Position numbers and translations under genes: made by a program
Virus record (IMG/VR): IMGVR_UViG_3300040801_004114
Strand: one strand, 5' to 3'
DNA: 64,000 bases
Source of the DNA: a virus
The notes under the pieces: generated by a model
Told to the model about the DNA's origin: nothing
Database searches by the model: none
What the model saw: only the letters and a program-made list of their open reading frames with translations
Shown: one piece after another, positions 32,946 to 49,711 of the stretch
Position numbering within the stretch: position 1 is the first letter of the stretch
Layout: every line of letters begins with the position of its first letter

Positions 32946-32982
32946 TTTTTTATATATAATATATGTAAAAAAAGACATATGT

Positions 32983-34251: not shown

Positions 34252-35058
34252 TTCTTTATCCCTTTTTCTTTTCTTCCTATAATAAATAAAAACTGGTATA
34301 ATAATGGGTATTATTAAGGTGGTGGCTAAAATTTCCCACCACCTTTCAATCCATGAAACAAATGAATACCAAATATCACCTTCTACAGGTATTAATTTCT
34401 CATAAACAACTATATCTTTATCAGAGATAGTTATTATCATTTTAAGGTAGTTATCTTTATTAGTAAGGGGCTTTATTCTCCACACCCACTCGGTATAGCC
34501 TTTCTCACCAATACTTTGTTCAGCACTATCATTTACCATTTCTATAATAGCTGAAGAATCATCACTATATAACTTAGCTTTCATTTTATCGCCAATATTT
34601 ATAGATTCTATTATAACTTTATCTTTTGATCCCTTTTCTACTATAGATATTCCCCTATCACCATTTACAATAATATCTACATTATTTTCTTTAGATATCC
34701 TAAGTTTTATGGTTGAATAAACATTTATTTTGAACTTATCTGGAACATTATACCCAATTATTCCAATCCCCTCTTTTTCAACCTCAACACTGTCAATTTT
34801 ATTAATTGTTACAATGGATTCTGAAGGTGTATAATTTGAATCTACCACAGTTCTTTCTTGTCTTGTATTTCGGGAAGTTAAAGTTAACCTATCAACTTGT
34901 TGGTATTGTCCAATACTTTTATACCTAGTAGTATAGATAGAATCATCAACCTTTTTAAAGTTATACTCTATTGCTTCATCTTTTGGCATTAGATCTTTTT
35001 TAGATCCACATGACCATATTATACTAATTATCAGTAATATGTAGAAAACTTTTTTCAT
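34240..35058 (-). CDS. Lipoprotein with C-terminal TM anchor (u-spanin-like topology)
   Basis: Lipobox IWSC after a hydrophobic N-region; C-terminal [20 protein letters not shown] followed by RKKRKR. Confidence 0.65.
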
Positions 35059-35088
35059 AATCTATATATAATTATCAAAATACCAACT

Positions 35089-35421
35089 ATGTCAATATCA
35101 GAACACATTAATTCACTTATACAAGAGATGAAAATTCCTTTTAGAAAATACAAATGGGGACATTTCATAATTAGAAATTTCATAGATTTAAGAAGAATGC
35201 CAGACCTTAGTTCTGCTTCACCAATAAAAAGCACTGTTATAGTATATAGGTATAGATATTGTCCTAAATACAAAAGATTAGAAAGAGCTTTTATGGGTAG
35301 TAAAAATTATGTACTTCGAAATTTAGAAGCAGAAAAAAGTTTAGATGATGAAATATCATGTAACATCAATAAGATTGACAAGTCATATAATAGATTGGAA
35401 AAAATAAATAAAGCTATATAG
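35089..35421 (+). CDS. Hypothetical protein (C-terminal RxxK tail)
   Basis: 110 aa, ends RLEKINKAI. Confidence 0.55.
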   Translation: MSISEHINSLIQEMKIPFRKYKWGHFIIRNFIDLRRMPDLSSASPIKSTVIVYRYRYCPKYKRLERAFMGSKNYVLRNLEAEKSLDDEISCNINKIDKSYNRLEKINKAI

Positions 35422-35590
35422 CTTCGAAATATCCTTTAAATTTTGTTTCCTTGATATATCCTTCTTCTGCTAGTTGAGATAAATACTTCAAAGTAGATTC
35501 CTCACTACTTTCCAAAATGTATTTAGAAATATAAGTATAATGAATTGGTTGTCTTAGCTTTAATAGTACTTTTCTTTTTAATTCATCCAT
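35414..35590 (-). CDS. Small putative winged-helix protein (58 aa)
   Basis: Manual translation MDELKRKVLLKLRQPIHYTYISKYIL...LSQLAEEGYIKETKFKGYFEAI. Confidence 0.55.
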   Translation of the reverse strand: MDELKRKVLLKLRQPIHYTYISKYILESSEESTLKYLSQLAEEGYIKETKFKGYFEAI

Positions 35591-35594
35591 AGTT

Positions 35595-36257
35595 TTAATT
35601 ATCTTTATTTTCGAATATTTTTACGTCTTTTATTTTAAACCTTATTTTATATCTTCTAGTTATTGATCCATATTGTAATTCTATCCAGTATTTTCCGACT
35701 TTGTTAGCAAACGAGTATATGAAATGTAGCGTATTACCTATTCTGTACCACACCATTTTCTTACCAATTCTAGAAAACTTAAGAGATAAAAAATCTCCTT
35801 TGTTATCTCTGAATTCTCCATCCTTGTTAACATACCTTAAACTAGCTAATGTTTCCCAGTTATGAGGAACACCACTTTCAATACTGCCTTTAAGTGATAC
35901 TTTTTCAACATCGCCAGAATTAGGTTTAAAAACTTCATAATGATTCCAAGCAGGATTTCTAATGACTGACCACATATAAGCTAATCTAAATTTATTCCAA
36001 GCATTAGTTGGGTATAATCCAACAGCTTCATGATACCATTCATAACCAATGTCGTTTGAATTGCCATCATTCAAATATAGCCATAGTGGGAAACTCACCA
36101 CACGTCCAAATTTATTACCATTATTTTTATATTCTCTTATCTTGTCTTTTAATAAGTAAGATATAGGATATACTATATATGCAGTTATTGCAAAAAACCC
36201 ACTAACTAACATGTTTAGAGAGAACCTAATATATGCCCAAATTTTTTCTAGTACCAT
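35595..36257 (-). CDS. Hypothetical membrane-associated phage protein
   Basis: N-terminal TM; W..IRNPAWN motif; late-type motif upstream. Confidence 0.7.
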   Translation of the reverse strand: MVLEKIWAYIRFSLNMLVSGFFAITAYIVYPISYLLKDKIREYKNNGNKFGRVVSFPLWLYLNDGNSNDIGYEWYHEAVGLYPTNAWNKFRLAYMWSVIRNPAWNHYEVFKPNSGDVEKVSLKGSIESGVPHNWETLASLRYVNKDGEFRDNKGDFLSLKFSRIGKKMVWYRIGNTLHFIYSFANKVGKYWIELQYGSITRRYKIRFKIKDVKIFENKDN

Positions 36258-36260
36258 TTC

Positions 36261-37145
36261 TTATATATTAAATCTATTTTTGGCATAATCAAATCCATCT
36301 TTCCACCACTGCTCCATATTATTTTTATCAAATATAAGTGAATTATTTGTAAGGGAAACTGGTGTATAGTATAAATTTAACTTAACACCATTATACATTG
36401 CTGCAAGCTTACCTTCTCTTATATCATTTATCTCAACTTGGTCTACCATGAATGTAAATAAATTTATCATCAAATCAAATGGGTTCTTGCCTAAAACTTT
36501 ATTTTTGCTACATGTTTCGGTTTCTAATATGACTACATCAATTTCTGTTGCGCCCCTTCTAATACATTCCCTGATCGGGACCATACTTCCAAATCCACCA
36601 TCCGCATATTTATACCCATCTTTAGATACTAGACTCATGAAAGGTATCATGTTACACGAGATCCATATCCAGTCTAAAAAATCTTGGTACTCAAAATCTT
36701 TTATTGATTTATACTCTATTTTATTTTTGGTTAAGTTAGATACGGTTACGATTATATCTTTACTTGATTTTTTAATATTTAAAAATTCATCAACTGTGAA
36801 TTTTTTCTCTATTGTCTTTCTAAGATTCTTACTCTCACCAAACGTCCTTCTTTTTTTAATAAATTGCGTTATTGTGTTTATGTAATTTATAGTAACATAT
36901 TTTTGATCTTTCTTGCTTCTTATGACAAATGGATCTAGACTAAATATGTCTTGCTGTGAAACATTTGTATAAATTTTCTTTAATTTTTTAGTTTTAGACA
37001 AACAAAGATGTGGTATTAATAAACTACCTGTTGAAGTTCCGAGTAATATGTCCCATTTTATTGATTTCTGATTAATTAAGTAATCAGTGATTCCACCTGC
37101 AAAAGCTCCCTTGCTACCACCACCAGAAATTACTAAACCTCTCAA
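36261..37145 (-). CDS. Patatin-like phospholipase (Flavobacteria-like)
   Basis: SGGGSKGAF, GTSTG (nucleophile), DGG. Confidence 0.92.
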   Translation of the reverse strand: MRGLVISGGGSKGAFAGGITDYLINQKSIKWDILLGTSTGSLLIPHLCLSKTKKLKKIYTNVSQQDIFSLDPFVIRSKKDQKYVTINYINTITQFIKKRRTFGESKNLRKTIEKKFTVDEFLNIKKSSKDIIVTVSNLTKNKIEYKSIKDFEYQDFLDWIWISCNMIPFMSLVSKDGYKYADGGFGSMVPIRECIRRGATEIDVVILETETCSKNKVLGKNPFDLMINLFTFMVDQVEINDIREGKLAAMYNGVKLNLYYTPVSLTNNSLIFDKNNMEQWWKDGFDYAKNRFNI

Positions 37146-37249
37146 ATTATTATTTTATTGTTTAAAGTATATATTTATTATTCTTTGTGCAATATACAAT
37201 TTTTTTGCATATTTTACCTAACAATATTACATTTTTTTATATATAACCC

Positions 37250-37924
37250 ATGGCAATAAAAAGAGGTCCTAATTTGACAACTAATAATATTATTTTAGCT
37301 CTTGATCCTAAAAATAATAAATCCTATATTGGAACAGGTAATTCTATAAATGATATATCTGGAAATGGTAATAATGGAACATTGATTGATAATCCTCAAT
37401 TTTCAAATGGTGTTTTTTCTTTTGATGGAACATCTTGGATATCTACACCCATTAGTAACTCTGTTAATAATTTATTTGCTGATAATACACAAAGTTGGTC
37501 AGTTAATATATGGTTTAAACCAAATGGTGTTGATGGTGTTATTTGTGGTAATGCTGATGGGATAGACACAGATTCTACATTTGCATTGTATATGGAATCA
37601 TCTAACCTAAAGTCCATGATAAGGGGAAGTGAGACAATAATAAGTAGTAATTTATTAACAACCGATTTCCATTGTATAACTGTGACTTGGGATCAAACAC
37701 AAGCATTTGGATATTATAATGACAACAATTCAGTTGAGTTAAACGTTGGTACAGCAACTATTCAAAATAACAACTATGGGATATGCGATAGTGCAGGAGG
37801 TAGTCTGAGCAATTTTAACAGGTTTTCAGGTGAAGTATCAGCTAATTATTTATATAGCATATCACTTAGTGAAACACAAGCCCATAACAATTATAGATCT
37901 TTATCATCTAGATTTGGTTTGTAG
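37250..37924 (+). CDS. LamG/concanavalin-A-like domain protein, probably virion-associated
   Basis: LALDP.N..SY...DISGNGNNGTL, WSVNIWFK, YSISLS...NNY; late-type motif upstream. Confidence 0.75.
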   Translation: MAIKRGPNLTTNNIILALDPKNNKSYIGTGNSINDISGNGNNGTLIDNPQFSNGVFSFDGTSWISTPISNSVNNLFADNTQSWSVNIWFKPNGVDGVICGNADGIDTDSTFALYMESSNLKSMIRGSETIISSNLLTTDFHCITVTWDQTQAFGYYNDNNSVELNVGTATIQNNNYGICDSAGGSLSNFNRFSGEVSANYLYSISLSETQAHNNYRSLSSRFGL

Positions 37925-37941
37925 GTAATAATATATAGTTT

Positions 37942-38295
37942 ATGGAAATACCAAAAATTATACGCTCTAATAAAATTTTAGACTCTCTTAGTTGGTTTAT
38001 GAGAATAGGTGGGATAACTTTATATCCATTTATCATACTTAGACCATACTCTAATGAAACTACTTTAAACCACGAGAAAATACACATAAAGCAACAGGAA
38101 GAAACATTAGTTGTCTTATTCTACATAATATATGTTCTTGAGTGGTTTTTTGGATTATTTATATATGGCTCATCTCAGGGTGCTTACCGAAATATTTCTT
38201 TTGAAATTGAAGCTTATGAAAACGAAAGTGATTTCAAATACTTGGAGAATAGAAAAAGATTTTCTTGGTTAAAATATATTTTTAACAAAAAGTAA
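37942..38295 (+). CDS. Small membrane HExxH protein
   Basis: GITLYPFI, NHEKIH..QQ, TM segment, AYRNISFEIEAY. Confidence 0.7.
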   Translation: MEIPKIIRSNKILDSLSWFMRIGGITLYPFIILRPYSNETTLNHEKIHIKQQEETLVVLFYIIYVLEWFFGLFIYGSSQGAYRNISFEIEAYENESDFKYLENRKRFSWLKYIFNKK

Positions 38296-38331
38296 AGATT
38301 ATTTTGCTTATATTTGTATAAACAAAAAATC

Positions 38332-38967
38332 ATGAATAAATACGTAAAGGTAAAGGGACACTCCAATTGGTTTTTACAAATTGATGAAACCGATAATATA
38401 GATCCTGACTTTGATGCCAACATGAAAGAGAAACTTATCAGAAAGCATGTGAGTACTATACACAATGAGGGAAAAACACAAGATTTTGTAACAAGGCTAA
38501 TACACCTTGGTATAAATGATATGAACTATCTAAAACTCGCTAAAAAATATGGTACTATATTAGTTAGACCATCTGGGACATTTATGCTACTAAGGGGGAG
38601 TGAGCTTATAGAGGAAAAGTATAGTGATTCTTTCCCAGTAACAGAATATGGTGATGTCGTAATATGTGAGAATGATAGTTCTTCTGAAAGTTTTTGGATG
38701 GATTTTCTAAGAAAAAAATTCCCAGATAAGAAAATAGTAACAATAAACTTTTTTGATTTAAGAACCGATTCTGAAATATCTGACTACTTTGAAAAGGCTG
38801 AAATCGTATCTTTTTCGACAACATTCTCAAACTTAGAATGGTTTAAAAAGCTAAGAAAAAACATAAAGGATAATAATAAGGTAATAGGTTATTCACACGA
38901 TGTAGCTAAATGGGATATCGTAGACACCACAGGGCTGAATATTGAAAAAATAAAAGATATAAAATGA
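38332..38967 (+). CDS. Hypothetical protein
   Basis: ORF 38314..38967; ATG at 38332 lies downstream of TATATTTG 38309-38316. Confidence 0.7.
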   Translation: MNKYVKVKGHSNWFLQIDETDNIDPDFDANMKEKLIRKHVSTIHNEGKTQDFVTRLIHLGINDMNYLKLAKKYGTILVRPSGTFMLLRGSELIEEKYSDSFPVTEYGDVVICENDSSSESFWMDFLRKKFPDKKIVTINFFDLRTDSEISDYFEKAEIVSFSTTFSNLEWFKKLRKNIKDNNKVIGYSHDVAKWDIVDTTGLNIEKIKDIK

Positions 38968-39344
38968 TATTAATAATTATAGCAATAACAATAATATTTA
39001 TAACCGAAGGGTTTCACGATTATTATGTTTGGAAATCAAGTACTAATGATAAATATGAATATACGAAAATATGGCACAAGGTAGACTTTGTATATAATGT
39101 CTTTGTGTGGGCATTAGTATCATATCTTATATTTGGTGTAAGTATTGATGCCATTTCACTCTTGATATTTATAGCAACGACAAGGATGCTTATGTTAAAC
39201 TCCACTATAAATTTGTTAAGGGGTATGAAAATATCCTATCTATCCGAAAGTAGTAATGTGATAGATAAACTACTACATAAATATGAAGATATTGTCTTTG
39301 TTGTCTTAATACTCATATATATTTCAGGATTTTTTTATTTTTAA
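38964..39344 (+). CDS. Multi-pass membrane protein
   Basis: 126 aa, about four hydrophobic segments. Confidence 0.65.
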   Translation: MILIIIAITIIFITEGFHDYYVWKSSTNDKYEYTKIWHKVDFVYNVFVWALVSYLIFGVSIDAISLLIFIATTRMLMLNSTINLLRGMKISYLSESSNVIDKLLHKYEDIVFVVLILIYISGFFYF

Positions 39345-39367
39345 TTAAATATATCAAATATTTTGAT

Positions 39368-39375
39368 TATATTTG
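39368..39375 (+). promoter_or_regulatory. Bacteroidota sigma -7 element (T9SS cargo)
   Basis: TATATTTG upstream of 39397. Confidence 0.6.
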
Positions 39376-39396
39376 CATGTAACTAAAAACAAAAAA

Positions 39397-42354
39397 ATGA
39401 AAACTAAAATTTTATTTATCTTATTATTAATGTCAAAAATGACATTGTTATCACAAGAAAACACTTGTGATATAATCATTTCTAGTATCGATGATTTATC
39501 AGAGCTAGGTAATGTAGACAACTCAACAATATGTTTTGATGGTGTTGTGTTTGATGCATATGAACTAACCAATAAACAATTTGGTGAAAATGTCACATTA
39601 AGAATAAATTCTAATTCTGTTGTTAGAACTAGAAATTTATCTTTTGGCAATAACTTAGCTATTATAAATGATGGTACTTTTGTATACGATGGTGGAACAT
39701 CTATAAATTTACCATCTGGATCTAAAGTTACCAATTTGGGAACTATGTCTATTATATTAAATTTAAATGGTGGTCAAATTATAAACAGTGGAGAATTTTC
39801 ACTAATCAAATATAGCAATTTAAACAGTGGTAGTATACTCAATGAAAGTGGTGTATTAACCTTAGATTCAAATGGGAATACAATTGGTAACAATATTAAT
39901 ATTATATCAGACGGTAATATAGTATTAAATAATGCCTATTCAAATAATGGCTACATTGAGGTTAATGGGAATTCTACATTTAATAGCAAATTCACTAATA
40001 ATAATGAATTTATAACATCGGGTGATGTTTTATTTAAAGGTGATTTTGTCTCTAATAGCAACTCTTCGATATCTACCTTCGAAAAATTCTTTGAGTCCCA
40101 AGGTGATGTAATTCTATATAATGGACAAATAATTGCAGGTAATGGTTTCTCATCTAAGGATTTACTAATGGAAAATCAATCATTAATACAATTTGGTGGT
40201 GACATAGAGGTTGATGAATTAACCTTAAGAGGTGTTTTAGAATCAATCGGTGGTTGTAATCAAATAATTTATGATAACATAACTAATGGCTTTGGTGGAA
40301 CATTGGAAGCTGAAAGTCCAAACTCTATATTGATAAACGACTTCCCTAGAAATTGGACAGTGATTGGAAATGTTGGTGAGACATGCTTATCTAATGAAAG
40401 TTGTGTTGTTTACTGGAATGGTGAGCAATCGTCTGATATAAATAATAAAAAAAATTGGACTAATAACAGTGGGAATTCTCATTTGAATAATGGTAATTGT
40501 ATCTTGGTTATTCCTGATTCAAACGATGTTGATAACAATCCTATTTTTTCGGGATTATCTAGATTCAAGTCACTTGTGGTTGGACAAGGTGGTGAAGCTA
40601 ATATCACAGGAGTTATAGATGTTAATGGTTTTGTTGATAATAAAGGAATCATTAACGGTGAACAGGGCGAAGTATTCACGGACTCATTTATAACAATATA
40701 TGGAGATGGAATTTTAAATATAGGTGATATAACTGGGTCTGGATTTGAATTGAATTCTGGTAACGTTAATTTGTATAATTCTTTAAGTGTGTCAACTGAA
40801 TCAAATGTAATAAATGGTACTTTTACTTTTAAATCTAATGAAACCAATACAGCTTTTATTTCAGATGATTCTAATTCGTTAATTGGTAAAGTAACTACTG
40901 AAAGGTATATACCAGATTCGAACAGGGCTTTCAGATATATAAACTCATCTGTTGACACGCACGAAAGCATCAGGGATAATTTACAAGAGGGTGTAAATAA
41001 CACAGTTAATAATTATGCTAATAACAAAAATCCTAACCCAGGTTTTGGAACTCATATAACAGGATCTAAAAGCGGATCTAATGGCTTTGATGCATCACTT
41101 ACTGGTAACCCATCTATGTTTCTTTGGGACAATATAAATAACGAATGGGGAGATGTAGACAACACAGATGTTGATAAATTAAGGGTAGACACAGCATTTT
41201 CTCTACTTATAAGAGGTGATCGAAGTACTAACATTTATGTAAGTAATGATACATATGAGGGTGTCACAACTTTGAGAATGACAGGGGATTTAAGAAATAA
41301 TGATTTAGATGTTTCAAACAAACTAAATGATGGTGTGAATTCATTTTCATTCATAGGCAATCCATTTCAGAGTAAAGTAGATGTGAGACCCTTGTTGAAT
41401 GAATCAAACGGTGTTAAGAAAACACATTATTATGCTTACTCACCACAACTTCAAGATTTAGGTGCATATATAACTGTTTCTATTGATGACTCGGGAAATG
41501 TTGAGACAACGCCCCAAATGCCAAATCAAGATGATTATAAGTTTATACAAATACATCAAGCTATATTTATAGAGAATACAAGTGATGATGAGCCTAGAAA
41601 CCTTACATTTAAAAATGAATATAGAAGTAATGGGAGTGGTATAAACAATGAGGTTTTTAGTTTAAATGAACCTGATGAACAGATTATTGTTAATTTACTC
41701 TCTAAGGAAACAGGTAAATTAATAGATGGTATTCGTGTTAAATTCAATGATAATTATTCCAACGATGTTAATGATAGTGATTTGACTAAGCTTTGGAATA
41801 GACAAGAAAGTATGTCCACATATAAAGACGAAAACTGGATAAGTGTTGATAAAAGAAATTTATTAGATGAATTAACTGAAGTAGAATTATATACTGGTTT
41901 ATATGATGGTATTCAATATGAGTTTTTAATAGACGTAGATATCAGAGAAGGCAATGATGTTATTCTATTGGATACATATACAGGGGATGAGCATTATTTA
42001 AATAGCGGTGAGAATAAAATAACTTTCGACTCTAATGGTGGGACGGATGCTTACAGGTTTAAATTTATTATTGAGGAATCTGAAACATTATCTGATGATT
42101 CTTTCGAATTGTCGGAAGATGTAGTAATGTATCCTAATCCAGTTACTAGCAATTACACATATATAAAAATGAATGATGTAAATAATGCCAGTGTTCATGT
42201 ATATGATATGAATGGGAACTTACTAAATGTGGGTGTTAATAAAACATCTAATAATGAGCTAAGATTGTCTACTAATACTTTGAGTTCTGGTATATATTTA
42301 GTAAAGATCATATCAAATGGTATCTCAACTACAAAGAAGTTAGTAGTTAGGTGA
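39397..42354 (+). CDS. T9SS type-A C-terminal sorting domain protein (large secreted surface protein)
   Basis: Signal peptide MKTKILFILLLMSKMTLLS-Q; Asn/Gly-rich beta-helix-like N-half; TERYIP, GTHITG..G.NGFDA, LLIRGDRS; CTD VVMYPNPV...VYDMNG...LSSGIYLVKI...TKKLVVR. Confidence 0.9.
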   Translation: MKTKILFILLLMSKMTLLSQENTCDIIISSIDDLSELGNVDNSTICFDGVVFDAYELTNKQFGENVTLRINSNSVVRTRNLSFGNNLAIINDGTFVYDGGTSINLPSGSKVTNLGTMSIILNLNGGQIINSGEFSLIKYSNLNSGSILNESGVLTLDSNGNTIGNNINIISDGNIVLNNAYSNNGYIEVNGNSTFNSKFTNNNEFITSGDVLFKGDFVSNSNSSISTFEKFFESQGDVILYNGQIIAGNGFSSKDLLMENQSLIQFGGDIEVDELTLRGVLESIGGCNQIIYDNITNGFGGTLEAESPNSILINDFPRNWTVIGNVGETCLSNESCVVYWNGEQSSDINNKKNWTNNSGNSHLNNGNCILVIPDSNDVDNNPIFSGLSRFKSLVVGQGGEANITGVIDVNGFVDNKGIINGEQGEVFTDSFITIYGDGILNIGDITGSGFELNSGNVNLYNSLSVSTESNVINGTFTFKSNETNTAFISDDSNSLIGKVTTERYIPDSNRAFRYINSSVDTHESIRDNLQEGVNNTVNNYANNKNPNPGFGTHITGSKSGSNGFDASLTGNPSMFLWDNINNEWGDVDNTDVDKLRVDTAFSLLIRGDRSTNIYVSNDTYEGVTTLRMTGDLRNNDLDVSNKLNDGVNSFSFIGNPFQSKVDVRPLLNESNGVKKTHYYAYSPQLQDLGAYITVSIDDSGNVETTPQMPNQDDYKFIQIHQAIFIENTSDDEPRNLTFKNEYRSNGSGINNEVFSLNEPDEQIIVNLLSKETGKLIDGIRVKFNDNYSNDVNDSDLTKLWNRQESMSTYKDENWISVDKRNLLDELTEVELYTGLYDGIQYEFLIDVDIREGNDVILLDTYTGDEHYLNSGENKITFDSNGGTDAYRFKFIIEESETLSDDSFELSEDVVMYPNPVTSNYTYIKMNDVNNASVHVYDMNGNLLNVGVNKTSNNELRLSTNTLSSGIYLVKIISNGISTTKKLVVR

Positions 42355-42377
42355 GTTTAGTTTTTAGTTTTTTTAGT

Positions 42378-42410
42378 AAGGGGGTAAGGTTCATTCTTTA
42401 TCCCCTTTTT
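42378..42410 (+). terminator. Intrinsic terminator of the T9SS cargo gene
   Basis: AAGGGGGTAA...TTATCCCCTT plus T run. Confidence 0.7.
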
Positions 42411-42624
42411 CTTTACACACTTTATTACGTAGCCTGACTAACCAATAAACTTGTATAATAGCTATTACAACGTTTAATATTATAATAGAGTGCGCATTAT
42501 CCATTACGCCATAAATAACCCATAAGAAAGCTCCTATTAGGCTAAACAATCTTAACTTTACGATATCCTTAAACATAAATGATATTATTATAACCACAGT
42601 CGCAAGCCATCCTACTATCTCCAT
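42391..42624 (-). CDS. Small YgjV/PQ-loop-like three-TM membrane protein
   Basis: GW.AT...ISF.....KLR...LIG..LW.IYG......II..N. Confidence 0.65.
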   Translation of the reverse strand: MEIVGWLATVVIIISFMFKDIVKLRLFSLIGAFLWVIYGVMDNAHSIIILNVVIAIIQVYWLVRLRNKVCKEKGDKE

Positions 42625-42665
42625 TAAAGCATTTTTTAGTTATATATAAAAAGACACTATTTGTT

Positions 42666-42676
42666 TTAATATATAC
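42666..42676 (+). promoter_or_regulatory. Putative phage late promoter TTAATATATA(C)
   Basis: 3 nt upstream of ATG 42680. Confidence 0.6.
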
Positions 42677-42679
42677 AGT

Positions 42680-43378
42680 ATGAAAAAATTTAATGACTTT
42701 CTAACAGAAGATGTTGACGAAAACAATGATAAAATAAAGGTTCTTATGCTTAATTGCACACTTAAGGCAAGTGGAGAATCTAATACAGAAGCACTCCTTA
42801 AAAGGGTTGAGGAAATATACAATGAGCATGATAAAGAAGTTGATGTTGAGATTGTTAGAGTAGCTGAATACAAAATGGACTTTGGTAACAGTGTCGATAA
42901 GTTATCTGATGAAGATCAATTTCCAGAAATATACGAAAAAATGCTAAACTCTGATATAATACTGATCGGTAGTGCTATTTGGTTTGGTGAGAGAACATCA
43001 ATAACACAGATAATTTTCGAAAGAATGATTGGTGCTTATGGGGATACAAATGATCTTGGTCAACCTAAATTGTATGGAAAAGTTGGGGGTGTTGTAGTCA
43101 CTGGAAATGAAGATGGTGTACATGGTGTCGCATCTTTAACATTATTTAATTTAGCACACTTAGGTTGTACTATACCACCAAATGCGGATTGTTATTGGGT
43201 AGGTGATGCAGGTCCTGGTAAATCTTATATTGAAGCTGGTGGTGAAAAACATTTATACACGAATAAAACAGCATATTTCTTAGTTAATAACACTTTACAC
43301 GCTGCTGAAATGATAAAAAATAATCCTTACCAAAGTAACCTAACCGAGTTAGAAGAAATGGCAAAAAAATATTCTTAA
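42680..43378 (+). CDS. Flavodoxin-family NAD(P)H-dependent FMN reductase with capsid-targeting-like leader
   Basis: LNCTLK....SNT, SDIILIGSAIWFG, YGKVGGVVVTGNEDG, IPPNADCYW; leader MKKFNDFLTE. Confidence 0.85.
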   Translation: MKKFNDFLTEDVDENNDKIKVLMLNCTLKASGESNTEALLKRVEEIYNEHDKEVDVEIVRVAEYKMDFGNSVDKLSDEDQFPEIYEKMLNSDIILIGSAIWFGERTSITQIIFERMIGAYGDTNDLGQPKLYGKVGGVVVTGNEDGVHGVASLTLFNLAHLGCTIPPNADCYWVGDAGPGKSYIEAGGEKHLYTNKTAYFLVNNTLHAAEMIKNNPYQSNLTELEEMAKKYS

Positions 43379-43379
43379 T

Positions 43380-43829
43380 TTACTTTTTAGTTATTATTGA
43401 AGTTGGTCCGAAATTGTTATATTCATAGTCTTTTGGGAGATACTTTATTAGAAATCTTCTATTAATTCTAAGTCTTTGATTCTCTTCTTTAGGACTAAAA
43501 TCTTCTTTTTCTTTTTCTTTCTTAGAAGCTATGTGTTCTATTATTATGGTTTCTGGTTCAAACATCTCTATGAAATCTACTGTTATGTCAGTTACTGTTT
43601 TTATAACATTGATAGCATCAGGATTTTCTAACATAGTAAAAGAATTCCTTTTATTTTTTATACCATACTCTCTTGTCCAACCATCTTTTGTTGGTGAGAA
43701 TTCAACATAAAAATTAACATTGTCTTTATTAGTAAATTCGTATTTTAATTTAGATGTATAAGGATCATCTATTGGTTTGAAATTGTAAGATTCTGTTATG
43801 AACTCTATGAATGGTATAATTGTTTTCAT
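43380..43829 (-). CDS. Hypothetical protein with capsid-targeting-like N-terminus
   Basis: MKTIIPFIEFITE; late-type motif at 43833. Confidence 0.7.
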   Translation of the reverse strand: MKTIIPFIEFITESYNFKPIDDPYTSKLKYEFTNKDNVNFYVEFSPTKDGWTREYGIKNKRNSFTMLENPDAINVIKTVTDITVDFIEMFEPETIIIEHIASKKEKEKEDFSPKEENQRLRINRRFLIKYLPKDYEYNNFGPTSIITKK

Positions 43830-43849
43830 AGAGTATATATAAAATATTG

Positions 43850-44236
43850 TCAGTCTTTTTTAATCCACTCTAAGTCGTAGTTTTTGTATTTACCCATGTT
43901 ACCCTCGTATAAATACGTGACCTTACCGCATCTACTACATTTTTTAACATTTCTTTGGACTTGGAAATTGTCTGTGTATAAGCCCTTAACTCTTTCAGAT
44001 CCATTATTGAAATAAGAATGAAACCCTAATTTACATAACATGTTAGATAAAATACTTTTCTTACGGATTGTTATATGATAAGATTTTTTATCTTCACCAA
44101 CATTAGACTCTAGTGAATACTTTTTATAAGGTATTTTAACTTCAAAATCTTTTAATTTTTTAGACTTAAAATACATTGTATCATCTTCAATGTTAAAGCT
44201 ATACGAAGATGATATTTTTAACCTTAACTCCCCCAT
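43850..44236 (-). CDS. Hypothetical protein with C/H zinc-binding motif
   Basis: LCKLGFH...CSRCGK. Confidence 0.6.
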   Translation of the reverse strand: MGELRLKISSSYSFNIEDDTMYFKSKKLKDFEVKIPYKKYSLESNVGEDKKSYHITIRKKSILSNMLCKLGFHSYFNNGSERVKGLYTDNFQVQRNVKKCSRCGKVTYLYEGNMGKYKNYDLEWIKKD

Positions 44237-44419
44237 TTATTTGTGAGTTATTTCGTTAAGTCTTTTTCTAAAAATAATTGCTAGTATAGAAACTGTGATT
44301 AAGATATAAAGAATTGGCATATCTATTGGAACTGTTGGTACATCATTTGCGTTTCCACCTGCACCAGGTCTTGGTGGGTGGTTCTGGATAAATAACAAAG
44401 CATTAAATAGATTTATCAT
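44237..44419 (-). CDS. PID-CTERM-like small protein
   Basis: Pro/Gly linker HPPRPGAGGNANDVPT, then VPID, a TM helix and FRKR. Confidence 0.65.
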   Translation of the reverse strand: MINLFNALLFIQNHPPRPGAGGNANDVPTVPIDMPILYILITVSILAIIFRKRLNEITHK

Positions 44420-44421
44420 AA

Positions 44422-44700
44422 TTATTTTATTTTAATTAAATTTTTAACAAGGTTAAAAACCTCATCATCTAAGAAAGATTCCCATTCACAACTCTCATCG
44501 TTGAACATTTTGATATTCAGCAACTCTAAACCCTTCTCACTACTTGACTTTATAGTAGCGTTCATTGTATATGGTATGATCTCTATAATATTATCAGAAG
44601 AGTCAACTGATAAGTAAATAGTATTAGAACTATTTAATATTTTTTTAATTTTTTCAGTAGTCATTTTAGTTTTTTCAGTTTTGGGTTTAGTTTTTAACAA
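44422..44700 (-). CDS. Hypothetical protein (start uncertain)
   Basis: 92 aa ORF; true start may be the internal MTTEKIKK. Confidence 0.55.
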   Translation of the reverse strand: MLKTKPKTEKTKMTTEKIKKILNSSNTIYLSVDSSDNIIEIIPYTMNATIKSSSEKGLELLNIKMFNDESCEWESFLDDEVFNLVKNLIKIK

Positions 44701-44897
44701 CTACCAAACTTGGTAGATACAAAGCACTCTAAATCATTATCACTTTCGAATCCAAGCTCTTGTAGCTCATCCATATCTTTTAGTGAAACTCTACTCGGTT
44801 CTACGTATACGTACATAACATCGTGTTCGCAACTAGTAGGATAATCTGAATTAGTGTATCTTCCGAAAATTTGAAAAGCTCTTATTAAATCTTTCAT
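44694..44897 (-). CDS. Hypothetical phage protein
   Basis: 67 aa; CEHD...ELQELGF...FGSC; TATATTTG at 44913-44920. Confidence 0.7.
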   Translation of the reverse strand: MKDLIRAFQIFGRYTNSDYPTSCEHDVMYVYVEPSRVSLKDMDELQELGFESDNDLECFVSTKFGSC

Positions 44898-44960
44898 TAT
44901 AAATATTTTTTACAAATATAGCACATAAAAATGATTATACAATAAAAATATCATAAATAT

Positions 44961-45239
44961 TTACCATTTTTGTGTAGCTAATATCTTGCCTTTTTTTGAT
45001 ATTAAATAATTTTCGTTACAATCTTCTCCTGAGCATCCACCACCATAAGATGCATATGCCCATCCATTTTCAAGTAACACACCACTTACTGGATGATGTA
45101 GCTCACTACCATCGGGATATACTGGACTTCCACTATACACATCTTTAATTTTTTGACCTTTTATATACTTGTTAAATGTCTCAGTATATGTCATACCTAA
45201 GTTTTCGTTAAACTTTTCGAAGTTTTTTATTTTTCCCAT
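44961..45239 (-). CDS. Hypothetical protein with capsid-targeting-like N-terminus
   Basis: MGKIKNFEKFNE; GGGCSGEDC. Confidence 0.7.
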   Translation of the reverse strand: MGKIKNFEKFNENLGMTYTETFNKYIKGQKIKDVYSGSPVYPDGSELHHPVSGVLLENGWAYASYGGGCSGEDCNENYLISKKGKILATQKW

Positions 45240-45275
45240 AGTATATATATTAATATGTAAATATAATTTTTTTAT

Positions 45276-45287
45276 TTAATATATAAG
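45276..45287 (+). promoter_or_regulatory. Putative phage late promoter TTAATATATA (divergent partner at 45241-45252)
   Basis: 2 nt upstream of ATG 45290. Confidence 0.6.
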
Positions 45288-45289
45288 TT

Positions 45290-45808
45290 ATGAAATACTT
45301 AAAAAAATATAATAAATTCTTTGAAGATGGCGATGGTGGTGGGAGTACTGGTTCTGGGGATGCTACGGCTAATGCATCCACTTCTGGTATGGGTGCAGTA
45401 GTATCTGCTCAACCAGGTGCGTTACCAGGTGATACTGGTACGTCAGGATCAGGTGATATTGGTTTTACTTTCAAGAAGAAAAAAAGAAAGAAAGGCGATC
45501 CTTCAGAAGTGTCTGACATGAGAGACTTAGAAGATTCTAGTGATGAGATAACTAAATTAGATGAAAACTATTCTGAGCAGGATGTTTTTAATGAAGTGTT
45601 AGACCATTTGAAGTCCAGAAATTTATCACCTAATATGATTAAACAAATAATGGGTAGTTATACAGATATGATTATAGAAATGTATAATGAGGGAATAAAT
45701 ACAACTCAAATAATAAAAAAAGTTATATCTCTATTAGGACATGAGAGTGAAAAAACATTTTTAGGGATACTTCCACCAACTACACCTAAACCTATATCCT
45801 TTCTATGA
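45290..45808 (+). CDS. Gly/Ser-rich protein with capsid-targeting-like N-terminus (internal head protein candidate)
   Basis: MKYLKKYNKFFE, low-complexity GDGGGSTGSG..., KKKKRKK patch. Confidence 0.75.
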   Translation: MKYLKKYNKFFEDGDGGGSTGSGDATANASTSGMGAVVSAQPGALPGDTGTSGSGDIGFTFKKKKRKKGDPSEVSDMRDLEDSSDEITKLDENYSEQDVFNEVLDHLKSRNLSPNMIKQIMGSYTDMIIEMYNEGINTTQIIKKVISLLGHESEKTFLGILPPTTPKPISFL

Positions 45809-46408
45809 TAACACTTTTTTTAGTTTACGAGATCTCTCAATAGAAATATTTGTATATTTTGGCAACGTCATGATATCATATATAGATTTTATATTATTAT
45901 TGTAAAGTGCATCCTTAACATCATATCTATAAGTTTCATTTTTGTTAATACTTCTTAAATACCTACCAAATATAATGTAGTCTATATCATCTTTCACTAT
46001 TTTAGATCTCAAATTTAGATTAACTGCTTTATAAAATACTTTATCTATGTTATAATTTCCCTCTATTATTGAAATTAATAACACCATAAAACTCACAAAT
46101 GACAATAATGCGAGTAATATAATAGATACTACTTCTCCATCAACTATCTTTTCCAAAGTTAAACTACCGTTTTCAGAAAGGGTCTGCTTTTGGTCAAAAT
46201 AATATATTTTTTTCGTTTCAGTTACATAATAATACTGGTCATTGTGTACAAAATCATTTATAACTTTCTGTTGATAATTTACTTTATCGAAGCCTATTGC
46301 GAAGTACATAGTTAATAAAATAATATTAAAGATATATAAAGACATTTTTAGTTTATTAAGAGCCATAAACATCCATATATAGCTAAAAAAATACTTGATT
46401 AAAATCAT
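45803..46408 (-). CDS. Two-TM membrane protein, paralog of 46405..46995
   Basis: IDYIIFGRY, DIMTLPK, ends RSRKLKKVLS. Confidence 0.7.
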   Translation of the reverse strand: MILIKYFFSYIWMFMALNKLKMSLYIFNIILLTMYFAIGFDKVNYQQKVINDFVHNDQYYYVTETKKIYYFDQKQTLSENGSLTLEKIVDGEVVSIILLALLSFVSFMVLLISIIEGNYNIDKVFYKAVNLNLRSKIVKDDIDYIIFGRYLRSINKNETYRYDVKDALYNNNIKSIYDIMTLPKYTNISIERSRKLKKVLS

Positions 46409-46995
46409 ATATCTAATTTTTTTAGTTTATTAATTCTATCCTTTTTCACGGTGTAGTGTTTGGGCAAAGAGGTTATATCAGAGAGTGTTCGTATATTACC
46501 AACAATATCGTATTTATGTAATATTTTATTGGCATCATTAGATCTTCTTATAAACCTATCGAATAATAAGTAATCTATACCATCTTTATCCATTTCGGAA
46601 TGTGTGAGAGTCCAAACAGTATCACGCAGTGGGTCTGTAAAATCTATTTCATTACTTTCACCAAATATGTATATTAATAGCCCAAGTAGTAAAGTTATAA
46701 ATGATGCCCATAATAGAATATTAATCCCTGAGTATGATGAATATTCTATTTGCTTATCAACTATAGGTATTTCTTTTGATTCAGTTTTTAATTGTAATTC
46801 TTCACCATCATCTAATACATAGTAATAATTACCACTTACTTCACCACTATGTATAACCTCCTTTATGTATTTATCATCCTCAAACTCCCCTGCGTAACAA
46901 AATGATAATATACATAAGAAAGAAAATATCACAAATCCTATATTATGGGCTATGAAATTGATGATGTATAGAGGTATTATTTTAAGATACAGCAT
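46405..46995 (-). CDS. Membrane protein, paralog of 45803..46408
   Basis: IDYLLFDRF, DITSLPK, ends RINKLKKLDI; ATG at 46995 lies downstream of TATATTTG 47008-47015. Confidence 0.7.
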   Translation of the reverse strand: MLYLKIIPLYIINFIAHNIGFVIFSFLCILSFCYAGEFEDDKYIKEVIHSGEVSGNYYYVLDDGEELQLKTESKEIPIVDKQIEYSSYSGINILLWASFITLLLGLLIYIFGESNEIDFTDPLRDTVWTLTHSEMDKDGIDYLLFDRFIRRSNDANKILHKYDIVGNIRTLSDITSLPKHYTVKKDRINKLKKLDI

Positions 46996-47007
46996 AATTT
47001 TTTTATG

Positions 47008-47015
47008 CAAATATA
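47008..47015 (-). promoter_or_regulatory. Bacteroidota sigma -7 element TAnnTTTG
   Basis: TATATTTG upstream of 46995. Confidence 0.6.
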
Positions 47016-47030
47016 ATATAAATATCTATA

Positions 47031-47984
47031 TTATTCACTATAATTAAAAACTTTTAATCTATTTAACCACCCTCTTCCGTGTTTTGAGAATGTTTTTGAT
47101 GCTTTATACCTTTTTTCTCTTTCTTTTTTTATGTTATCAAACAGTTGCTTAGAATCAACTTCATTTACGAAATCCATAAATTTATCATCATATGGATTTT
47201 CGTCTTTTCTAATAGGAATCCCAGAAGAATTGAAAGCCTTTCTTAAAACTTTTCTCATCCCATTTATACCTTGGTTAACACATCCATCGTATATTATATT
47301 AGCCACTGACTGGTTATTTATCTTTCCTAAATTTTGATTCTCCCAATATTTTTTTTTGTAAATATCTAAAGCAGTTTCATAACTTAAATTGATCATATCT
47401 TCTTTAGTAGGAAGTTTACTCATGTAATCCATAAGAACAGGTGCTGATATACCATGGTTAGTACCAATAAACCTCTTTCCATAAGGTGTTGATACGAAAT
47501 TACCCCTGTCTTTTCTATCATCTGAATATCCTTTTTCAACACTCTTTACTAAACTTTGAGCATCTAAAAAAGATGCTTTAGTAACTGGTGCTTTAGTAAC
47601 TGTTAAATCTTCTAGGTTTTTAATAGCCTCTAGTGTCTCAGGTGGTATCTCACTGCTTATGACATCATTATCAACTTTGTCATTTGGGAAATAGTAATCA
47701 AATGGTGCGAATAATAGAAACACAGCAGATGCTGACAATAAAATTCTCTTTTTATTTTTATTCTTCATATCTCCTAGTTTACTTAGGAGCTTATAGAAGT
47801 ATTTCTTAATTTGTTTTTTAGACATAGTTTTTAATAGTTTTTTGAGTCTAGATGTTTTTTTCATATCCCAGTGGTATGTATTATCACCTATCCACTCCCC
47901 TTTGTCTTCTAATATAGAATTATCAAAATTAAATATTTGATTAAATTCTTTTTCTAATAAAAAATCATTATATTTGCTAATCAT
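47031..47984 (-). CDS. GH108-like muramidase with peptidoglycan-binding C-terminus and capsid-targeting-like leader
   Basis: EKGYSDD..DRGN...TNHGIS, YKKKYW, D..VNQG, GWLNRL; leader MISKYNDFLLE. Confidence 0.85.
   Translation of the reverse strand: MISKYNDFLLEKEFNQIFNFDNSILEDKGEWIGDNTYHWDMKKTSRLKKLLKTMSKKQIKKYFYKLLSKLGDMKNKNKKRILLSASAVFLLFAPFDYYFPNDKVDNDVISSEIPPETLEAIKNLEDLTVTKAPVTKASFLDAQSLVKSVEKGYSDDRKDRGNFVSTPYGKRFIGTNHGISAPVLMDYMSKLPTKEDMINLSYETALDIYKKKYWENQNLGKINNQSVANIIYDGCVNQGINGMRKVLRKAFNSSGIPIRKDENPYDDKFMDFVNEVDSKQLFDNIKKEREKRYKASKTFSKHGRGWLNRLKVFNYSE
47969..47976 (+). promoter_or_regulatory. Bacteroidota sigma -7 element inside the divergent GH108 coding start
   Basis: TATATTTG upstream of 47999. 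Confidence 0.5.
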
Positions 47985-47987
47985 AAT

Positions 47988-47998
47988 GTATATATTAA
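47988..47998 (-). promoter_or_regulatory. Putative phage late promoter TTAATATATA(C)
   Basis: 3 nt upstream of ATG 47984. Confidence 0.6.
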
Positions 47999-48379
47999 AT
48001 GGAAAAAATATTATTAGAGAATATCGAAGATATATTTAAAACACTTGGTATTAAAGCAAAAAGTAACTCACCTTTAATGGTAATTAAAAGCAACGAATGT
48101 GCTAAGAATGTACCAACCCAATACATATCTCGTAGACCTTTTGGCAGAATTGATTTGTCTATTTTTATTCCAAAGAGAGATTACTATATACATGAGGATA
48201 GAAAGCATTTAGTGAACCTAAAACTCATGGGTTATAATACGAATATTGATATAGATTTTGAACTTACTTTTAAATCATTAAAAGGATTATCAGTGATAGA
48301 CAATGGTATTTTTTTCACCGAATATGAAAAAAATGCTTTGAAAAATAAAATAAGAAAAATTAAACTAAATCAAATTTAA
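47999..48379 (+). CDS. Hypothetical protein (KNKIRKIKL tail)
   Basis: Ends ALKNKIRKIKLNQI. Confidence 0.7.
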   Translation: MEKILLENIEDIFKTLGIKAKSNSPLMVIKSNECAKNVPTQYISRRPFGRIDLSIFIPKRDYYIHEDRKHLVNLKLMGYNTNIDIDFELTFKSLKGLSVIDNGIFFTEYEKNALKNKIRKIKLNQI

Positions 48380-48392
48380 CTATATAAATAAA

Positions 48393-49124
48393 ATGGGAAG
48401 AAGATTATTATTCTTAGGTGATATACACGAAAATTTTAACTTAGTAAAGTATTACGTCAAATCTTATGATATAACCAACGCTGACATCATACAGGTTGGT
48501 GACTTCGGTGTTGGTTTTAAAAAATTTGACAGGGATATGGAAGAATTAAAAAGAGTTAATGATGCCATAGCTGTTAATGATGTAACTCTATATGCAATAA
48601 GGGGGAATCATGATTATAAGCCTTATTTTGATAATGATCCTTTTAATTTGTCTAACATAAAACTATTAAAAGATTACTCGGTTCTAAACCTATCTAACCA
48701 TAAAATATTACTTATTGGTGGAGCTATAAGTGTAGATAGAGTTGAAAGAATTGAGGGTTATAGATCAGGCAAGTATAAATATAGGCATTGGTGGAGTGAT
48801 GAGTCTTTTGAGTTGGATACAGATAAATTAAAAGATGTAAAGGATATTGATATTGTAGTCACACATTCAGCACCTGAGTTTTGCCATCCTACGAATACAG
48901 AGGGTTTTGGTTTTTTTGTGGATAGCAAGGCTAAAAATGATGAATATTTAAAAACTGACCTTTTAACTGAGAGAAAGCTAATAACAGATGCTTTTGATAT
49001 TATTCAGGAGAACAATAATATAACACATCACTATTATGGACACTTCCATACTAGTGCTTCTAGAGAAATTAATGGTGTTAAGCACCGACTTTTAAATATA
49101 GGAGAATTATGGGAAGAGAGATAA
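48393..49124 (+). CDS. Calcineurin-like metallophosphoesterase
   Basis: GDIH, QVGDFG, RGNHD, GGAISVDR, VVTHSAP, YYGHFH. Confidence 0.92.
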   Translation: MGRRLLFLGDIHENFNLVKYYVKSYDITNADIIQVGDFGVGFKKFDRDMEELKRVNDAIAVNDVTLYAIRGNHDYKPYFDNDPFNLSNIKLLKDYSVLNLSNHKILLIGGAISVDRVERIEGYRSGKYKYRHWWSDESFELDTDKLKDVKDIDIVVTHSAPEFCHPTNTEGFGFFVDSKAKNDEYLKTDLLTERKLITDAFDIIQENNNITHHYYGHFHTSASREINGVKHRLLNIGELWEER

Positions 49125-49711
49125 ATAATAAAATAAGAGTTTCATGTGCTAGTTTTGCATCTATAAAGCTTGGTGATAAATACTTATTGTGCCTAAATAA
49201 AAATAAATTAGAAAACGGTATTGAAGTATTCACACCTTTTGGTGGTGCATTAGAATATAAGCAAAGTGCTAAAGATTTTTTAGATAATTTGGGAGTAGAG
49301 TATTTAAGGGAAACCACTGACCTTAGACTAATGATGGATAGAGATAACTTAGACCTTTTTGAAATATGGTTTTCTAAAAGAATAGACCGAGAGGTAAGTG
49401 TTGCTAGAGAATTAGTAGAAGAAATGGTTTATGAAGAAGGTATATTAGAATCTTTGAATCCTAGTGATTATACATCAGAACATATAAAATCAGAAAAGCT
49501 AGAAACCGAAATGGATAACTTGACATTGTTTATGTATTTTGAAATTTTTAATGTTAAATTTAACATACCAAAGGCTAGAGAGATTTTTATGAGTCTAGAT
49601 AATAATGACAAAATAGGACTTTTTACTGAGGAAGAAATATTAAAAGGAGTGTCTGAAAATGGTATCAAAATAGGAACTAACTCTAAATCTATATTACAAT
49701 CAGATGACTAG
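49109..49711 (+). CDS. Stand-alone SMODS-associated-type NUDIX (Sa_NUDIX-like) protein
   Basis: IRVSCASFASIKLGDKYLL, PFGG, DLRL, WF...DRE...RELVEE (NUDIX-box remnant); no TM segment. Confidence 0.7.
   Translation: MGREINNKIRVSCASFASIKLGDKYLLCLNKNKLENGIEVFTPFGGALEYKQSAKDFLDNLGVEYLRETTDLRLMMDRDNLDLFEIWFSKRIDREVSVARELVEEMVYEEGILESLNPSDYTSEHIKSEKLETEMDNLTLFMYFEIFNVKFNIPKAREIFMSLDNNDKIGLFTEEEILKGVSENGIKIGTNSKSILQSDD

Follow-up and report, generated by a model that had tools for sequence, protein, structure and literature searches.

A phage gene for a predicted type IX secretion substrate with full-length orthologues in Psychroflexus

A phage-borne relative of a flavobacterial surface protein

The virus record IMGVR_UViG_3300040801_004114 of IMG/VR provides a stretch of 64,000 nucleotides (nt) of phage DNA, referred to here as the window, on which a 985-amino-acid (aa) protein is encoded that combines a predicted signal peptide, a right-handed beta-helix, a long beta-sandwich module and a type-A C-terminal sorting domain (CTD) of the Bacteroidota type IX secretion system (T9SS). 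We consider it likely that this gene, hereafter the cargo gene (P0001), is a functional phage-borne copy of a core surface protein of the Psychroflexus type, which would be exported via Sec and the T9SS and would alter the surface of the infected cell. What carries this reading is the domain make-up of the protein, the phage context of the gene, the selection acting on it, its orthology to host genes and the presence of a T9SS in the presumed host genus. A 60-aa gene (P0002) less than 2 kb away encodes a small membrane peptide whose connection with the cargo protein is more tentative. The features of both genes are listed in Table 1.

Domains of the cargo protein

The N-terminus of the cargo protein consists of the residues MKTK, a hydrophobic run and the sequence LLS-QEN, with cleavage predicted before the Gln. 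At the end of the signal peptide, Ser or Ala followed by Gln is found in the same alignment column in 13/13 cellular full-length homologues. A Gln at position +1 is what the 'Q-rule' states for substrates of signal peptidase I in Bacteroidetes (PMC5837995), and the N-terminus of the cargo protein fits a signal peptide of this kind. At the other end, the CTD is recognized over the full length of two models, TIGR04183 (residues 911–985, E 1.2e-13, 50.8 bits with a cutoff of 23) and PF18962 (E 1.7e-12, 47.9 bits with a cutoff of 27). Its fold, predicted by AlphaFold2 (AF2) with a predicted local distance difference test (pLDDT) value of ~90, is matched by Foldseek to the RgpB CTD (5ag8) and to PorZ (5m11) with probabilities of 0.99 and 1.00, respectively. 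A first-pass annotation, made from the letters of the window, had already described a 985-aa protein with a Sec signal peptide before Gln, an Asn/Gly-rich beta-helix-like region and a type-A CTD, and had named TIGR04183 as the model to be consulted; open reading frame (ORF), alignment, AF2 model and profile match bear out each of these elements in place.

Comparison with 120 homologues by BLAST resolves the protein into three zones. Residues 1–330 occur only in ~15 full-length proteins, all of which come from Psychroflexus or from metagenome contigs. Residues 330–473, the linker, are common to the 'secreted ice-binding cell surface proteins' of Psychroflexus torquis with a DUF3494 head. Residues 473–985 are found in more than 100 T9SS cargo proteins of Flavobacteriia with unrelated heads (ice-binding DUF3494, LTD, MAM, M14 peptidase, PA14, LRR and GEVED), and some of the homologues of this part are proteins of 550–650 aa that contain little besides stalk and CTD. 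In the AF2 model the C-terminal half forms a chain of beta-sandwiches ending in the CTD. The stalk (~430 aa) possesses strongly conserved motifs, for instance G-T-H-I-T-G and N-P-Y-Q, and no Pfam model exists for it. Foldseek searches with the stalk against the PDB return only generic Ig-like arrays with a low TM-score, and the named matches to the C-terminal half among the clusters of the AlphaFold database (AFDB) are nearly all T9SS sorting-domain proteins. The P. torquis ice-binding proteins (PF11999 plus CTD; P0017, P0018 and P0020) are 37% identical to residues 330–985 of the cargo protein, that is to linker, stalk and CTD, whereas their head is a DUF3494 ice-binding domain unlike the beta-helix of the phage protein. 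Since linker, stalk and CTD are thus shared under a different head, the stalk looks like a display scaffold for interchangeable heads.

The Asn/Gly-rich head folds as a right-handed beta-helix in AF2 models built with homologue alignments, which reached pLDDT values of 86 (head) and 88. VIA-align assigns the head a Z of 18.6 to the HMW1 secretion domain and of 16–17 to Vag8, TibA, Ag43, MpAFP and phage tailspikes, and the nearest shapes in the Atlas are autotransporter passengers (TM-score 0.68); a Foldseek search of the head against the PDB yielded no match at E ≤ 0.001. The head residues that never vary among 16 homologues are G, N, L, F and C; of D, E, K, R and H, Asp24 of the N-terminal C-x-C-D cap alone is invariant within residues 21–330, and no Pfam or NCBIfam enzyme family matches the 985-aa protein. 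Hence, the modelled head is read as adhesin-like rather than catalytic.

A beta-helix of the lyase, hydrolase or epimerase type could also belong to a secreted polysaccharide-acting enzyme, which would be exported by the T9SS to strip capsule or exopolysaccharide (EPS) from the infected cell or its neighbours and so aid the escape or spread of progeny. VIA-align matches the head to the AlgG epimerase (Z 16.0), the K1 capsule lyase (Z 16.1), PL6 lyases and phage depolymerases as well, and the published T9SS cargo of 'Cryophages' includes glycoside hydrolases (PMC7468147). However, the invariants of the helix contain no conserved acidic or basic cluster, although non-conservation among the 16 homologues is not proof, and the lack of an enzyme-family match points in the same direction. 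In addition, the short regular coils resemble those of autotransporter and two-partner secretion (TPS) adhesins, and the best shape matches are adhesins. On balance an enzymatic head appears unlikely.

Host-type orthologues and selection

Full-length orthologues of the cargo protein, with 35–39% identity over 98–100% of its length, are encoded on the chromosomes of P. montanilacus, P. tropicus and P. aestuariivivens and in related metagenome-assembled genomes (MAGs). Three of the orthologue loci are flanked by a rhodopsin gene and a BrxC-like/PAPS-reductase pair, and in another orthologue clade the gene precedes that of a FAD-dependent enzyme; these are ordinary chromosomal, non-prophage settings. 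The chromosomal orthologues (e.g. P0007 of P. montanilacus and P0009 of P. tropicus) have the same architecture from signal peptide to CTD as the phage protein. They differ from it in the N-terminal cap, which is C-x-C-D in the chromosomal proteins and T-C-D in the phage protein, and their genes are cellular and higher in GC (33–34.5%, with 25% at third codon positions (GC3), compared with 30.5% and 21% for the cargo gene). Derivation of the phage cargo gene from a host-type gene is supported by these sequence comparisons. The P. montanilacus genome also encodes SprA, detected in a 2424-aa frame by SprA_N (PF14349, E 5e-127). Because the orthologues are chromosomal in Psychroflexus and P. montanilacus encodes SprA, the most probable host is Psychroflexus or a closely related bacterium with a T9SS.

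Two further phage copies of the cargo gene are found on contigs from other sequencing runs, L001 and L005. All three copies, including that of the window, are intact at 985–986 aa and have kept signal peptide, stalk and CTD. In L001 and L005 the gene caller placed the start at a later ATG; both copies nonetheless hold the signal peptide. The ratio of nonsynonymous to synonymous substitution rates (dN/dS, Nei–Gojobori) among the three copies is 0.15–0.17 for the whole cargo gene, with 0.23–0.26 in the beta-helix, 0.14–0.18 in the linker, 0.08–0.12 in the stalk and 0.05–0.17 in the CTD. Neighbouring phage genes range from 0.03 to 0.6, and the cargo gene lies inside that range. The gene is selectively maintained and under purifying selection that includes its secretion signals. 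Recurrence in related phages with dN/dS below 1, to which the first-pass annotation had pointed as a check of its proposal, is what these copies display.

The same data bear on whether the protein might instead be a component of the virion, namely a beta-helical tailspike or fibre that bears Ig-like domains at its C-terminus and whose CTD is merely a retained Ig-like fold. Phage tailspikes match the head with Z 16–17, Ig-like domains are common on virions and a tail module lies 7.5 kb away. Against this stand the cleavable signal peptide conserved in 3/3 phage copies, the full-length orthology to chromosomal non-prophage host genes, the purifying selection on the CTD and the location of the gene, which is surrounded by auxiliary genes (patatin, FMN reductase) and preceded by a host-type promoter element. 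Moreover, PHROGs contain no family for the cargo protein (or for the 60-aa protein). A structural role in the virion is therefore very improbable.

Phage origin of the window

Phage genes on the window include those for a Phage_base_V baseplate spike and for a 1242-aa protein matching tail PHROGs 5939 and 1419. A VanY-containing large tail-lysin-like protein, a GH108-type endolysin, a NAMPT and an RNA ligase, the last two of phage type, are also encoded. Neither a capsid nor a terminase gene is present within the window, and tRNA genes number 0. The GC content is 29.3%, remaining at ~29% throughout. Logan contig L001 (31 kb), which stems from another run and an independent assembly, is collinear with positions 32949–49897 of the window (~17 kb) at 89.9% nt identity and with identical gene order, and in a third run the cargo gene is located on the 3-kb contig L005. 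Given the synteny with L001, the copy on L005 and the phage-like GC and GC3 of the cargo gene, chimerism or contamination, a concern raised in the first-pass annotation, is excluded as far as assemblies can show. Although the nearest named homologues are all cellular, an assembly chimera, host contamination or a recently captured and decaying passenger gene is extremely unlikely in view of the 90% nt synteny in an independent assembly and the third sample, a GC and GC3 like the phage and unlike the host, just 35–39% identity to any cellular copy, and an intact frame with a dN/dS of 0.15.

Searches of GenBank phages by blastn 'distant' with the gene, by megablast with 24 kb and by tblastn with the protein gave no match, and a search of IMG/VR with the single cargo protein retrieved no relative. 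A microbial-mat study is the only one in which a third of the sampled words is present, with small shares in other runs, and no RNA run is listed among the datasets containing the cargo gene.

A second phage lineage with the same host gene family

A scan of IMG/VR based on an alignment identified a cargo orthologue on a 201-kb T4-like uncultivated virus genome (UViG), L006, which belongs to a jumbo phage and is ~28% complete. L006 contains a T4-type Gp23 capsid gene (E 2e-27) and, beside the cargo gene, a T4 Rnl1-type ligase; its DnaK is merely 67–68% identical to that of Psychroflexus. The L006 cargo protein has 1047 aa and is 35% identical to the window protein over the full length. Cellular Psychroflexus proteins share 67% identity with its head, and the P. 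torquis ice-binding proteins ~80% with its stalk.

As a tree of linker, stalk and CTD is confounded by mosaicism and comes with a long-branch warning, a tree of the head region was used instead. In this unrooted tree the L006 protein nests in a cellular Psychroflexus clade (support 95/99), whereas the window lineage forms its own branch with a length of 1.9 substitutions per site. As judged from this topology, both phages hold the same host gene family with different histories. No donor lineage can be named for the window gene, because the position of its clade is unrooted and on so long a branch. P0010 resembles P0005 in the head, but its stalk groups elsewhere, and the stalk region appears mosaic among the Psychroflexus paralogues (P0010 and P0012 versus P0005) and the jumbo phage, which suggests recombination between heads and stalks.

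Three window proteins from the tail end and the auxiliary block found no match in the L006 fragment, and on this account no relationship between the two phages is demonstrable. Apart from a weakly similar peptide gene, the only other gene common to both phages in the compared regions encodes a 220-aa protein (window 35595–36257, minus strand; L006 16659–17339) with 48% identity, which the atlas puts with DUF7338 viral proteins. In the window, this membrane-associated protein adjoins the gene for a phage patatin-like phospholipase at 36261–37145 (dN/dS 0.03).

Proposed export route and role

The cargo gene is preceded by TATATTTG and followed by a terminator-like hairpin (Table 1), so that the upstream element and terminator of its own, which the first-pass annotation had assigned to it, are both in place. 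The sequence TAnnTTTG is the −7 element of Bacteroidota promoters (PMC6847099, PMC9723704). Within the window, 17/36 copies of TATATTTG lie 0–60 nt upstream of the start of a gene on the same strand, mostly at 12–33 nt, where ~5% would be expected by position. This recurrence agrees with the use of the host's primary sigma factor for many phage genes.

In the infected cell, the cargo gene would be transcribed from this host-type (TAnnTTTG) promoter. The pre-protein would cross the inner membrane via Sec and be cut by signal peptidase I before Gln20. Next, the type-A CTD would be recognized by the host T9SS with its SprA translocon, and the protein would reach the cell surface, where it could be anchored or from which it could be released after removal of the CTD. 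Displayed in this way would be a non-enzymatic, adhesin-like beta-helix on the conserved stalk that is used by host proteins. The surface of the infected cell would then be altered with respect to the host protein, the host copy being replaced, masked or outcompeted, and superinfection exclusion or the avoidance of progeny loss on debris are possible outcomes. Since two phage lineages have picked the same host surface protein among many T9SS cargo proteins, we favour, with low confidence and by analogy, interference with the place of the host protein on the surface (which would mask a receptor, exclude superinfection or protect progeny against debris), and put altered adhesion second.

Several points weigh against export and surface alteration as proposed here. 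Judging by VIA-align, polysaccharide lyases and tailspikes, too, typically have beta-helices of such a size. Expression, in vivo export route and biological role are deduced from sequence; the specific role, for which confidence is low, is argued from analogy and from recurrence in two phages, and the host is assigned from the taxonomy of homologues. The signal peptide was recognized by visual inspection and alignment, and in the window a Lys interrupts its hydrophobic core at a position where the sister phages have Thr. Furthermore, as the window lineage is on a very long branch, it may have departed in function from the host protein.

The 60-aa gene and PID-like peptides

The 60-aa gene belongs to a separate string of genes on the opposite strand, headed by another TATATTTG, and is therefore not co-transcribed with the cargo gene. 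The C-terminal part of its product consists of VPID, MPILYILITVSILAIIF and RKR, and the 17 hydrophobic residues between the two motifs give it the layout of PID-CTERM proteins (NF046080), namely P-I-D, a transmembrane helix and a C-terminal basic cluster. The first-pass annotation had read this layout (Pro/Gly stretch, VPID, transmembrane segment, RKR) correctly from the sequence. Its PID-CTERM-like label, however, fails at the level of the model, since NF046080 (cut-off 26 bits) matches neither P0002 nor its L001 copy even at E ≤ 10. The protein starts with MINLFNALLFIQN, a segment without a basic n-region and with ~8 hydrophobic residues, and an in-frame stop lies 4 codons upstream; compared with its only plausible relatives, P0002 is without the first ~11 residues of the signal peptide. 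The dN/dS of the gene is 0.55, calculated from only 24 substitutions, with a nearly unchanged PID-transmembrane-RKR core and variation at both ends. Of the two genes that had been described as kept intact, this is thus true of the cargo gene with its three intact copies but not of the 60-aa gene.

A clearer peptide of this kind is encoded by L006, where a 79-aa PID-like gene follows the cargo gene at a distance of 32 nt. Its product has a complete signal peptide with IA before Gln at the end, after which come PGAGGN, DVPAPID, a transmembrane helix and KNK. Its best NCBIfam match is NF046080 PID_CTERM (E 0.021, 14.7 bits, below the cut-off of 26), it has 47 relatives, one of them in Psychroflexus sp. 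MES1-P1E, and at least 24 contigs of the L006 phage have kept the cargo gene and the peptide gene as a pair. P0002 shows weak BLASTP similarity to the L006 peptide (E 4e-4), with PGAGGN, DVP-x-PID, the transmembrane segment and the basic cluster in matching order. The only hits of a motif scan over the window and 11 fetched loci were the 60-aa gene, its L001 copy and the L006 peptide gene beside the cargo gene. With a profile of the PID-like family (alignment A4) searched against 3559 ORF segments, the window copy scores E 0.7 and the L001 copy E 0.14, and these two phage peptides come next below the true members, separated by a single interloper. When IMG/VR was scanned with alignment A3, in which P0002 stands first, there was no match, and with A4 only the same UViG L006 was found. 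No mention of 'PID-CTERM' was found in the literature searched.

Based on these similarities, the chance that P0002 is homologous to PID-like peptides is somewhat better than even, and the 60-aa gene is probably a degenerate relative of small PID-like membrane peptides. Somewhat less plausible is that it encodes an unrelated small phage membrane protein, involved for example in lysis or exclusion, in which the PID-transmembrane-RKR layout is coincidental. This would agree with the missing NF046080 match, the profile E-values of 0.14–0.7, the lack of a proper signal peptide, the dN/dS of 0.55, the separate leftward gene string and a search of 5.8 billion clusters in which P0002 finds only itself and the L001 copy, two proteins of the kind. 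Coincidence fits less well with the BLASTP similarity to the jumbo-phage peptide in the same motif order, with motif-scan matches confined to the 60-aa gene, its L001 copy and the cargo-adjacent L006 gene, and with the profile ranks of both phage peptides.

In cellular genomes, PID-like genes and cargo genes occur apart. None of the ten cellular cargo loci has a PID-like gene (0/10) and none of the six cellular PID-like loci a gene with a type-A CTD (0/6). The view that PID-CTERM peptides commonly neighbour T9SS cargo genes in Flavobacteria, taken as established in the first-pass annotation, is accordingly not upheld by the cellular genomes examined, and the association is one of phages instead. 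The same counts speak against the idea that both phage genes were acquired from one host-like locus, of which the part concerning the cargo gene stands, given its Psychroflexus orthologues. The pairing itself, which had been noticed in the window, is real in phages, because in the second lineage a clear PID-like gene follows the cargo orthologue after 32 nt. In Psychroflexus-type contigs, the cellular PID-like gene is convergent with an operon of one MptA_B-family GT-C gene and two GT2 genes, always with a 14-nt overlap; this arrangement suggests that PID-like peptides are linked to envelope glycan synthesis.

The two genes are unlinked in all cellular loci examined yet less than 2 kb apart in two phage lineages with separate cargo histories. 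Unless this is due to chance or to transfer between phages, the phages could have assembled a two-gene module in which the peptide acts with the T9SS cargo, for example as an anchor, as an assembly or glycosylation partner or by modulating surface attachment, and thereby helps to remodel the infected cell's envelope. We regard such a module as a doubtful proposition.

In L006, the last ten codons of the peptide gene, including the stop, are a near copy (25/30 nt) of the last ten of the upstream cargo gene (positions 11546–11575 and 11817–11846). The two proteins end in T-I-T-H-K-L-I-I-E and T-T-T-H-K-L-I-V-E, and cellular peptides end in A-I-K-I-D; the shared gene ends look like a recombination scar. 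P0002 ends in I-T-H-K, and its L001 copy does not.

Neighbouring genes

Convergent with the cargo gene lies a gene for a 77-aa multi-transmembrane protein (42391–42624, minus strand), which is 97% conserved in L001 with a dN/dS of 0.06 and has sub-threshold matches to MtN3_slv and Imp-YgjV. The clan of these two families includes PnuC, and in a phage with genes for NAMPT-type NAD salvage the 77-aa protein could be a small transporter subunit. Directly downstream of the GH108-type endolysin gene and on the same strand, two adjoining genes (45803–46408 and 46405–47010, minus strand) each encode a 201-aa protein with an N-terminal transmembrane segment. Both proteins end in similar K-L-K-K motifs and look like paralogues, with dN/dS values of 0.61 and 0.24; they are candidate lysis accessory proteins.

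Table 1. Location of the cargo gene, the 60-aa gene and associated features (window positions unless a contig is named)
Feature	Position	Strand	Basis
Cargo gene (P0001), predicted 985-aa secreted surface protein	39397..42354	+	ORF, homology, hidden Markov model (HMM), dN/dS
TATATTTG, putative −7 promoter element of Bacteroidota type (TAnnTTTG), 21 nt before the ATG of the cargo gene	39368..39375	+	conserved in L001; promoter function predicted
Signal peptide, residues 1–19, predicted cleavage LLS/Q	39397..39453	+	sequence and alignment
Right-handed beta-helix passenger domain, adhesin-like, residues ~21–330	39457..40386	+	AF2, VIA-align, Atlas
Linker, residues 331–473, with W-x-G-x-x-S-x-D...N-W motif, common to P. 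torquis ice-binding surface proteins	40387..40815	+	alignment
Beta-sandwich 'stalk' module, residues 474–905, widespread in T9SS cargo of Flavobacteriia	40816..42111	+	BLAST, AF2
Type-A T9SS C-terminal sorting domain, residues 906–985	42112..42351	+	HMM, Foldseek
Terminator-like hairpin, 12-pair stem and T-run, in the convergent gap 24 nt after the cargo stop	42378..42407	+	consensus match only
60-aa gene (P0002): Pro/Gly stretch, DVPTVPID, transmembrane segment, RKR; possibly a truncated, diverged PID-like peptide	44237..44419	−	sequence, BLASTP, profile
TATATTTG heading the leftward gene string 44897->43380, which includes the 60-aa gene	44913..44920	−	putative operon, from spacing
Cellular PID-like peptide genes (L011 has two copies)	L011 8001–8246; L012/L013 8001–8204; L018/L019 7001–7231; L020 5055–5285		

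Known systems and significance

Phage-encoded T9SS cargo has been described before. Bellas et al. (2020, Nat Commun) reported three 'Cryophage' genes ending in a T9SS type-A sorting domain and proposed that the host T9SS is hijacked by phage-encoded cargo, possibly for effects on competition or superinfection (PMC7468147). The passengers of the Cryophage proteins are an endoglucanase, a GH39 and a PA14 protein, encoded in hypervariable islands of another type of phage with another host (PMC7468147). In contrast, the cargo protein of the window has a beta-helix on a host-type stalk, has a full-length host orthologue and is conserved (dN/dS 0.15). De Jonge et al. (2019, Viruses) reported T9SS sorting-domain proteins from 'cluster 2' of gut phages (PMC6949934), and phages of P. 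gingivalis encode secreted proteins that follow the Q-rule (PMC10367356). Foldseek searches of BFVD return several UniProt entries from uncultured Caudovirales phages that are annotated 'Secretion system C-terminal sorting domain', and also a protein of an uncultured marine phage that matches the entire stalk and CTD (E 1.4e-20, TM-score 0.56). The passengers of the gut-phage and BFVD proteins are others, such as BACON repeats. As both phage T9SS cargo and the idea of a hijack had been published (PMC7468147, also PMC6949934), the first-pass annotation overrated the novelty of its proposal.

The present case is a well-documented further example. New are the full-length orthology to a core host surface protein, the quantified selection, the recurrence in a second phage lineage and the phage-specific proximity to a PID-like peptide gene. 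Phage products that are placed in the host envelope by host machinery, where they change the surface or block a receptor, are familiar from lambda (Lom and Bor) and T5 (Llp). Their routes are Bam and Lol, not the T9SS, and the analogy is functional only, without a relation in sequence or fold.

Phage T9SS cargo has so far been mentioned only in passing in metagenomic papers, and to our knowledge neither the export of a phage protein by the T9SS nor a benefit of such export to the phage has ever been demonstrated. The cargo gene of the window is an unusually clean case for testing this, with all signals on one gene, clear selection, a host orthologue and a second phage lineage. The analysis also exposes a widespread and unnamed display stalk of ~430 aa in flavobacterial surface proteins. 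Bacteroidota are major degraders in marine, polar and saline habitats, and if the host orthologue is a phage receptor or a major surface determinant, the cargo protein would represent a T9SS counterpart of receptor masking or superinfection exclusion in this phylum.

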